A stretch of 64,000 bases of DNA from Escherichia coli (lineage in GTDB: Bacteria; Pseudomonadota; Gammaproteobacteria; Enterobacterales; Enterobacteriaceae): assembly GCF_003790525.1 (NCBI RefSeq), contig NZ_CP033635.1, one strand, 5' to 3'. Of this stretch, positions 15,944-17,580 are shown in pieces. The number at the start of each line of letters is the position of its first letter. The first letter of the stretch is position 1. The position numbers and the translations under genes were made by a program. The notes beneath the pieces are model-generated. The model saw only the letters and a program-made list of their open reading frames with translations, made no database searches and was not told where the DNA came from.

Positions 15944-17559
15944 ACCGACTCCTGATTCAAATGTATGATGGTATTCATTGAACAGAACAATGGATCCCCC
16001 ACCGTTGCTGACCGCAAAACATTTACGCGATTAATACTGCGCGTAATATAATTAAAAATCCAGCATTCTCAATCCATTACGAAATAAGATGGCATTACGG
16101 AATAGCCAGACTTTCTTGTGTTAACGTCCGACAAAATGCGTCATTGACAGCGGTTTCTGTGGATTGACACATTTCATTCAGATAATGAATTAATGCTACT
16201 GCCGGAACAACCAGCAAACGGGCATTGTGTTCTGAAATCCAGGCTATTGATTCAACGTCAGCGACAGATCTGCGCTGTAAAAGAACTTGTAAAACAACGT
16301 AATAGAATTATCCGGAATGGTGGCGACTATGCACTAGAACACCACAATTTCGCTCTCTCGGTAAGGCACTGTCACAGCATTCAACAGAATGTGACTTGCC
16401 AGATTTATTAGCGCCACCAGATGTTTAACCGGGTAACCACGACCCAGTCGGGGATATATTCCATCTTCTCGCTGACATCATCAAGAATAAAAAGGTTTAT
16501 CACACTCAGAGCAACGTTCTTCAGCAGGCGGGATAATTCTTCAACATTTAGAAGATGTGTTATTAAAGGCATACAAACTGGACGTATTGTATTTTCTTTT
16601 GGTGGTTGACCTAAGGTAGCAGTTTATCCTGATGCGCTGAGATTTCTGTAATATCTACGTCAACATTCTCCTCGAATAGAAAATGCAGCCCCGGCAAGTG
16701 ATTCACATTTTTTAACAAAACGTTGTTAGCGTGCCATTTTCAGAAGCTCTCCAAGAAAGCGAATTCTTTTCTCAAATTCTGCATTCTCAGACACAGCTTT
16801 CTACTCCATGGTAATGGCCCAAATACGAAGTTGCTCAGGATCATTAGTGGTGCTGAGAAGTTAAATAACCATGCGGAGTACCACTCGTCATCACGTATTT
16901 ATATATCATGAAGCTATTGTTGTGTTTTGTACATCAGTAGATATATTCTGATATACTCCTTTTGCTAGACATAACCTTTCACCTGCTTGCAAAGCTTCTG
17001 TGTTCTGACATTGCCAAATTGTTGCAATTCTGTATCCAGCCTTCTTTCAGTCATAGCTTCGGGCCGCGATAAGACTCACTGATCTGACCCTGATTCCTCT
17101 TGCAGACTTTATAGACCAATTAAAATGCAGTTTCTGCAGGTCAACGTCTGACCATCATTGTCATCACTCTGGCCATTAGAGTAACCTTCTGCATTCATCC
17201 TTTTGTAAAAAGTTTATATTAGTATCAGCAATTAACCGGACCTGATACTGATATGAGTCTTACCGCATATACGGTCAATTTCAGCAATTAATTACATTAT
17301 CCACGCCAAAGTATTTGTCATCACAATGATGGTACCTTCTTTCAGACACCATTTTTTCAACTCCGTTTTCCACGGACCGCACTCTTATGTCAAGAGTGCG
17401 GTCCGTGGATACAACCAGAGACCGACTGACACGAGTCAGAGGAAACGACGGATATGTTCAGTCGTAAAATATCTATCAAAAAACATGATTAAGGTCAAAA
17501 ATGTTTGATATTTACAATTTATGAAGATGACAATAATTATAGATATATGAGAACATAAA

Positions 17560-17580
17560 TGAAAATAATTATCATTACAG
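17560..17580 (+). promoter_or_regulatory. candidate Fur box upstream of the TonB-dependent receptor gene
   Basis: GAAAATAATTATCATTAC resembles the GATAATGATAATCATTATC Fur consensus. Confidence 0.5.

Follow-up and report, generated by a model that had tools for sequence, protein, structure and literature searches.

A perfect palindrome in pseudogene and insertion sequence debris between cobU and a CP4-44-type island of Escherichia coli

What fills the gene-poor 1.6 kb between cobU and the neighbouring genomic island of Escherichia coli, and does the perfect hairpin contained in it have a role? The stretch under study covers positions 15950–17580 of a 64-kb window (the entire piece of DNA analysed) and was read in minus-strand order from cobU outwards. 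Taking the history of its fragments and the reading of the hairpin together, we consider it probable that the stretch consists of non-coding debris marking the left border of an island of the CP4-44 type, located at the site of the E. coli cbi/pdu loss. The hairpin, a palindrome within the pseudogene yoeH, most likely ends or protects an approximately 167 nt long transcript started at the yoeH promoter. Accordingly, the appropriate label for the stretch is pseudogene and insertion sequence (IS) debris at the cobU/CP4-44 junction, and not candidate new element.

Gene fragments between cobU and the island

In the window, ldtA, cobT, cobS and cobU are all encoded on the minus strand. Since cobU has this orientation, positions 15944–17614 are located upstream of the gene and hold its promoter, and the location “downstream of cobU” given in a preliminary description of the locus has to be reversed. 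The absence of any long open reading frame (ORF) over approx. 1.6 kb, claimed in the same description, holds true. According to the ORF list, the longest ORFs wholly within 15950–17580 comprise 72 aa (16193–16411, plus strand) and 62 aa, and the right edge of the stretch is straddled by a 75 aa ORF (17436–17663, minus strand). The stretch holds four pseudogene fragments and three published promoters. The last core gene and the fragments following it are:

15398..15943, minus strand: cobU, last core gene, start codon facing the stretch (ORF list; annotation of near-identical loci by the Prokaryotic Genome Annotation Pipeline, PGAP)
16095..16238, minus strand: remnant of the cbi operon (cobalamin synthesis), annotated by PGAP in the near-identical locus L001 as 'cobalamin biosynthesis protein' with missing N-terminus
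16247..16435, minus strand: internal fragment of an IS4-family transposase with a stop codon, K-12 yeeH and start of yoeG (PGAP; NCBIfam NF033592)
16429..16872, minus strand: N-terminus (aa 1–151) of an IS66-family TnpC with five stop codons, K-12 yoeG (tblastn with plasmid TnpC; translation)
16873..16987, minus strand: 3′ tail of an IS66-family tnpB (from approx. codon 100) and tnpB–tnpC spacer (local alignment to L004; weak tblastn match to the TnpB tail)
16988..17234, minus strand: 3′ non-coding region (NCR) of an ISEc11-like element of the IS110/IS1111 group (68.6% DNA identity to the plasmid element L003)
17235..17424, minus strand: C-terminal remnant (aa approx. 274–337 of 339) of an ISEc11-like transposase, interrupted by two stop codons and one frameshift, K-12 yoeH (tblastn, BLASTP, K-12 annotation)

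The locus is essentially known, as these pieces already figure as CP4-44 pseudogenes in the K-12 annotation. From cobU to yoeA, window and K-12 are colinear with 99.9% identity right of the IS5H site (16338–17620, one position only being different) and 98.8% left of it; K-12 features and published K-12 coordinates were carried onto the window by exact offsets. The comparison with K-12, proposed in the preliminary description, returned the same locus in the same order, namely yeeH (b4639), yoeG (b4640), yoeH (b4641) and yoeA (b4582), which map to the window as follows:

16247–16333, minus strand: yeeH
16340–16872, minus strand: yoeG
17241–17399, minus strand: yoeH
17615, plus strand: start of yoeA

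The start of the cryptic prophage CP4-44 is placed at window position 16199 in the K-12 annotation, and the first island sequence in the window is the IS4-family fragment. With pieces of cbi, IS4, IS66 and IS110 origin at this annotated left border, the earlier suggestion of decayed genes at an island insertion point is borne out. Compared to K-12, the window lacks IS5H (between yeeH and yoeG) and IS2F (in yoeA), and its receptor gene, the counterpart of the split yoeA, is full-length but frameshifted. Part of the stretch is matched by 5403 of 5426 complete E. coli genomes, and at least 80% of it by 2793. To the K-12 annotation can be added that yoeH represents the end of an ISEc11-like element of the IS1111 group, seekRNA-type non-coding region included, and that the palindrome inside yoeH, which the K-12 annotation leaves unmarked, explains the published “internal” RNA 3′ ends. 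Beyond correct annotation, the importance of these additions is small.

In near-identical strains, PGAP annotates two minus-strand pseudogenes in the stretch, a cobalamin protein and an IS4 family transposase. To their right, 1.2 kb left unannotated by PGAP show approx. 70% DNA identity to plasmid regions with IS66- and IS110-family genes. When the four translated fragments were searched against Pfam and NCBIfam, the IS4 fragment alone scored (NF033592, E-value 4.7e-5, profile positions 137–191 of 332), the rest being too decayed. A translated search, as recommended in the preliminary description, did recover transposase fragments of IS66 TnpC and of the IS110 family by tblastn. For the former, aa 1–151 are 47% identical to plasmid TnpC (E-value 1e-23), its DNA is approx. 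71% identical to plasmid IS66 elements (E-values down to 3e-71), and local alignment to L004 places IS66 homology from 16987 to 16841. The gene set tnpA-tnpB-tnpC is incomplete, as the tnpB tail and TnpC aa 1–151 were the only parts found, and tblastn with plasmid proteins gave no tnpA match.

Judging from sequence comparison, the cbi remnant at 16095–16238 is ancestral E. coli sequence from the deleted cbi operon and lies outside the island. Window positions 15944–16239 are approx. 92% identical to strain E2348/69 (L010), whose counterpart ORF of 145 aa matches the CbiG N-terminus (NF004463, 1.3e-20); the 47 aa fragment of the window by itself had zero matches to the hidden Markov models of Pfam and NCBIfam. 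In E2348/69, the order is pdu-pduF-pocR-B12 riboswitch, cbi stump, cobU, and in HZDC01, which is without the island, cobU is followed by 188 bp, a pduV stump, and then tmaR-yeeA. The history suggested by this arrangement would be that a cbi stump remained beside cobU and its promoter, that IS4-, IS66- and ISEc11-like IS110/IS1111 elements then inserted in or next to each other, and that each of them was later truncated and decayed to the stop-codon-bearing fragments known in K-12 as yeeH, yoeG and yoeH.

The ISEc11-like remnant and its palindrome

The assignment of yoeH to an ISEc11-like element is based on several protein comparisons. By tblastn, the C-terminus of an IS110-family transposase was found at 17402–17241 (48% identity, E-value 3e-9, two stop codons). 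After mending one frameshift, 31 of 64 residues of the repaired peptide are identical to aa 274–337 of 339 in BLASTP (E-value 1e-14, pairwise). A tblastn search of the yoeH fragment against 7.3 Gb of plasmid sequence led to annotated IS110-family transposases (48–50% identity over 63 aa, E-value 6e-9), and the transposase encoded by the plasmid relative shares 92% identity with an 'ISEc11 family transposase'. The Pfam model PF02371 did not score for the remnant, which is too decayed. Neither the N-terminal DEDD catalytic domain (PF01548) nor an intact frame was found, with no protein or DNA homology to the element right of approx. 17424. In direct comparison, 17403–17620 showed no homology to the ISEc11-like element above shuffled sequences; patches aligned by MAFFT in this segment were dropped as spurious.

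ISEc11 belongs to the IS1111 group, in which a long 3′ non-coding region encodes the seekRNA (PMC11187229). As far as can be read from the alignments, 16988–17234 is the fossil of such a seekRNA-type NCR: its identity to the plasmid element is higher than that of the adjoining coding remnant (68.6% vs. 58%), and conserved blocks as well as a long-range stem are retained in a three-sequence alignment. Thus, with ISEc11 and its relatives (IS1111 group, IS110 family; DEDD transposase and 3′ seekRNA NCR) the window shares the last approx. 64 codons and a 245 nt NCR. It keeps approx. 430 of approx. 1440 bp, having lost the left end and the DEDD domain and showing no recognisable sub-terminal repeat on the right. 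The plasmid element has the sub-terminal inverted repeats ATGAACGCATCCC / GGGATGCGTTCAT, whereas the right end in the window enters IS66 tnpB at 16987/8 without that repeat; the left end of the element is absent from the window. Compared to the intact relative, the coding part is frameshifted and carries stops, and the palindrome is found in the window copy only.

17369..17409, both strands: perfect palindrome, 18 nt arms, 5 nt spacer, within the transposase remnant (codons approx. 278–292)

A repeat search detected two arms at 17369–17386 and 17392–17409, each 18 nt long, 100% complementary and separated by 5 nt, overlapping the 5′ end of the pseudogene yoeH. The perfect 17-bp hairpin of the preliminary description is therefore real, and comprises 18 bp in full; its 17-bp version covers 17370–17408, so that the position 17378–17416 quoted before was about 8 nt too far right. 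In the 64-kb window, the arm sequence occurs at these two places only (0.10 expected; 0 of 100 shuffles with two matches). Folded as RNA in a 101 nt context, the sequence gives a GC-rich stem-loop of 18–19 bp with −44.3 kcal/mol (z = −7.8) on the plus strand and −50.3 kcal/mol (z = −8.6) on the minus strand, and none of 200 shuffles was as stable. The structure check asked for earlier thus turned out in favour of a fold far stabler than shuffles; the Rfam 15 covariance models had no match at E ≤ 1 in 13000–21000 on both strands. The statement that no T run flanks the stem stands: on the plus strand, TTTT stands ahead of the stem and ATACAACC behind it, on the minus strand the stem is followed by AAAACGGA, and a terminator scan did not call the hairpin. 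The palindrome sequence is present in 2760 of 5426 E. coli genomes and absent from about half, with a median of one place per genome and two at most. It is invariant in five lineages (K-12-like, BL21, CFT073 of phylogroup B2, Nord1 and SB0258h1).

The homology to the transposase gene continues across both arms and both sides of the loop. At the homologous site of the intact relative, self-complementarity is 5/18 and at chance level; without the 10 nt that the window lacks, it would reach 9/18. Identity to the relative is 13/18 for the inner and, after the 10 nt gap, 11/18 for the outer arm, which is the background level. Since the palindrome has no counterpart in the closest intact relative, it arose within the remnant, and for a gene under neutral decay, perfect pairing over 18 bp suggests a templated event. 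Most plausibly, a weak inverted repeat was perfected, e.g., by a quasi-palindrome template switch with deletion. Among the searches for closer relatives, a word-based protein search with the yoeH fragment returned nothing, the best 120 relatives of the plasmid ISEc11-like transposase were all 47–55% identical to the yoeH fragment, and, in 100,044 species representatives, both a peptide-pattern scan for the fragment and a search for the exact 24-mer 17358–17381 (left flank and 12 nt of the left arm) were empty.

The RNA 3′ end and competing explanations of the hairpin

17536..17565, minus strand: yoeH promoter, TTTTCA-18-TATAAT (consensus scan, 10/12), leftward transcription through the hairpin
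17362..17363, minus strand: in vivo RNA 3′ terminus, 6 nt past the stem (PMC10687069, Supplementary Data 2 and 3)
17373, minus strand: minor RNA 3′ terminus, inside the 3′ arm (K-12 2068393)
17056, minus strand: RNA 3′ end inside the NCR (K-12 2068076, PMC10687069)
17520..17614, both strands: divergent AT-rich control region of approximate bounds, holding the cluster of Fur sites that belongs to the receptor gene (PMC2189734; K-12 identity 99.9%)

Genomic systematic evolution of ligands by exponential enrichment (SELEX) had yielded three leftward promoters in the stretch, those of cobUST, yoeG and yoeH (PMC3946193), and our scans recovered all three on the minus strand where they were expected. 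The same TTTTCA/TATAAT hexamers are described as the H-NS-associated constitutive promoter of yoeH (PMC3946193). In K-12, minus-strand termini have been mapped to 2068382/2068383 (signals 0.98 and 0.64) and 2068393 (PMC10687069). The table of that study gives this very hairpin in its fold column, with −36.6 kcal/mol and a longest U run of 2, and the authors of this TRS study remark on 'premature termination or processing within' yoeH. Northern blots of K-12 detected a yoeH transcript as well as an RNase III-sensitive, Rho-terminated antisense RNA. A transcript from approx. 17529 to 17363 would be approx. 167 nt long, with the hairpin dominating its fold.

From these data we propose that the remnant is transcribed from the yoeH promoter at 17565–17536, divergently from the Fur-controlled receptor gene, and that the palindrome folds into a very stable RNA stem-loop which would set the 3′ end of the approx. 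167 nt transcript 6 nt past the stem. The 3′ end itself is shown in K-12, on identical sequence. As the stem lacks a U tract, intrinsic termination is less likely, and the stem probably acts mainly as a barrier to 3′-to-5′ exonucleases after termination further downstream, itself probably Rho-dependent. Stem-loop-protected 3′ ends of Rho-terminated or processed transcripts are a general principle of E. coli RNA 3′-end formation. The locus resembles them in that its GC-rich stem is stable and not followed by a U tract, and in that term-seq-type data put the 3′ end a few nucleotides past this stem; it differs from them in that Rho dependence has been shown for the yoeH antisense transcript only.

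Several points weigh against this interpretation. All transcript data come from K-12, where IS5 and IS2 are located nearby, and not from the strain of the window, and the transcription start is inferred from a promoter predicted by SELEX. The exonuclease barrier and a non-canonical termination are alternatives which both fit the data. Concerning the remnant, the boundary between the right end of the ISEc11-like element and IS66 tnpB lacks the sub-terminal repeat of the plasmid element, and may represent the joint of a deletion instead of a site of insertion. Concerning the palindrome, plasmid tblastn, protein search, and k-mer and peptide scans revealed neither a pre-palindrome allele nor a closer intact relative, and its invariance in all lineages inspected provides no covariation signal for or against selection.

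Among the competing explanations, an ordinary Rho-independent terminator, either of yoeH or of read-through from the island, would account for the GC-rich stem of 18–19 bp and the in vivo 3′ ends 6 nt downstream, features which the canonical type shares. However, a U tract is absent, the sequence past the stem being AUACAACC for the plus and AAAACGGA for the minus strand and the published longest U run being 2, the terminator scan was negative, read-through products end at 17056, and there is no intact gene to terminate. A canonical terminator is rejected on the grounds of the missing U tract on either strand and the negative scan, and the explanation as a whole appears improbable. Even less can be said for a repeat of the repetitive extragenic palindromic (REP) or bacterial interspersed mosaic element (BIME) type, or for the terminus of a mobile element (an IS end or an IS200/IS605-like hairpin), an explanation to which we give next to no credit despite the location among IS fragments. 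REPs are imperfect palindromes without T runs, and the locus shares with REP/BIME that its palindrome lies outside coding DNA and lacks a T run; it is distinguished from them by a perfect 18-bp stem lying in a transposase pseudogene. Single copy in the window, a median of one place per genome in the 2760 genomes and transposase-gene homology through both arms effectively refute both variants; moreover, the hairpin lies approx. 370–420 bp inside the right-end boundary of the remnant (approx. 16988), and the 24-mer 17358–17381 has no exact copy in the species representatives. Of the earlier proposal of an “IS/REP-like or regulatory” structure there remains that the hairpin is IS-derived, lying in yoeH, and that it acts at the RNA level, with 3′ ends 6 nt past the stem; it is neither an IS end nor a REP.

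The palindrome might instead work as DNA, be it an operator bound by a protein, a cruciform or a target preferred by ISs, as suggested by IS3-family insertions at 17402/3 (outer arm) and 17432/3 in other strains. ISs are found all along the 1.6 kb, however (IS5 at 16337/8, ISEc8 at approx. 16205, IS1), so that their clustering is explained by neutrality, and arms of 18 bp far exceed typical operators, which makes such a role very improbable. Some more weight, while still unlikely, is carried by the idea that the approx. 167 nt RNA has been co-opted as a functional small RNA (sRNA), with the hairpin as its terminator and control by iron or H-NS via the shared Fur-box region, or with an action, together with an antisense RNA, on the receptor gene. 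It would agree with a promoter that is defined and a 3′ end that is both sharp and strong, the overlap of this promoter with the strongest Fur cluster in E. coli, the sense/antisense pair processed by RNase III, and a hairpin identical across phylogroups. Nevertheless, no Rfam family was found at E ≤ 1, the flanks are conserved as much as the hairpin and give no sign of extra constraint, only 2760 of the 5426 genomes have the sequence, approx. 500 genomes carry an IS in the stem, and no target or phenotype is on record beyond one knockout screen naming yoeH among many genes. A narrower version, namely an iron- or H-NS-controlled sRNA whose stem was built by template switch from a dead ISEc11-like transposase gene, seems to us doubtful to a slightly higher degree; if true, it would be an sRNA born of IS debris, possibly acting on the neighbouring heme-receptor gene together with the antisense RNA sensitive to RNase III.

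Concerning Fur, no predicted cluster of E. coli exceeds that of yoeA (27.4 bits, 12 sites in 95 bp, at −48), and yoeA was positive in a gel shift (PMC2189734); the yoeH promoter falls within the region of this cluster. The Fur consensus GATAATGATAATCATTATC gave no match with up to three mismatches, and the statement on Fur consequently rests on the published information-theory model and the gel shift (PMC2189734). A 16-codon ORF (MFFDRYFTTEHIRRFL) at 17436–17486 on the minus strand lies inside the short transcript from the yoeH promoter and is without an obvious Shine-Dalgarno sequence; it is probably meaningless.

Promoters, insertions and neighbouring genes

16045..16072, minus strand: cobUST promoter, TTGAGA-16-TATATT (consensus scan, 10/12)
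16905–16933, minus strand: yoeG promoter, TGTACA-17-CATGAT (pattern match; PMC3946193)
16337/16338: insertion site of IS5H in K-12, absent from the window
~16205: insertion site of ISEc8 in O157
17402/3: IS3-family element in roughly 500 genomes, inside the outer arm of the hairpin
17432/3: IS629-like element in other strains
17615..19761, plus strand: frameshifted TonB-dependent gene of the heme/hemoglobin-receptor family, K-12 yoeA homologue (ORFs 17588–18556 and 18583–19761; 'frameshifted' by PGAP in L001)

The hexamers at 16045–16072 are those given for the constitutive promoter of cobUST (PMC3946193). In the window, the cobalamin riboswitch is gone, and cobUST has this promoter of its own. 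Some B2 strains keep pdu-pduF-pocR and the cobalamin riboswitch directly upstream of the stump of the CbiG N-terminus and cobU (E2348/69, L010 4134–4964); in those strains, the riboswitch may now stand before cobUST.

Besides the elements listed, IS1 has also inserted within the stretch in other strains. The region 16200–17435 is a clear IS trap, in which no fewer than six different IS insertions fall within 1.5 kb when E. coli strains are taken together. On the plasmid pRHB15-C23_2 (L003 3322–4747), the ISEc11-like element is located within an IS66-family tnpC at ...CCTGGAG^AGCAGATG, a site which differs from the published ISEc11 target GTGAAAATACTG. The window copy abuts IS66 tnpB at GCAGGTGAAAGG (16987/8), and in TB4328 an ISEc45 (IS110-like) element is likewise found between IS66 fragments. 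IS66-family sequences may be targeted repeatedly by IS110-family elements.

The receptor gene right of the stretch shows plug and beta-barrel Pfam domains, and TIGR01785 matches each half with approx. 1e-32. An intact copy is present in CFT073 and O157, and the K-12 copy (yoeA) is interrupted by IS2. The gene may be that of the heme receptor Hma of uropathogenic E. coli. The next island gene to the right is an IbrB-like gene with a ParB-like domain (20132–20776, minus strand), for which PGAP marks an internal stop in the near-identical strain CDE6306, and which is another decayed gene.

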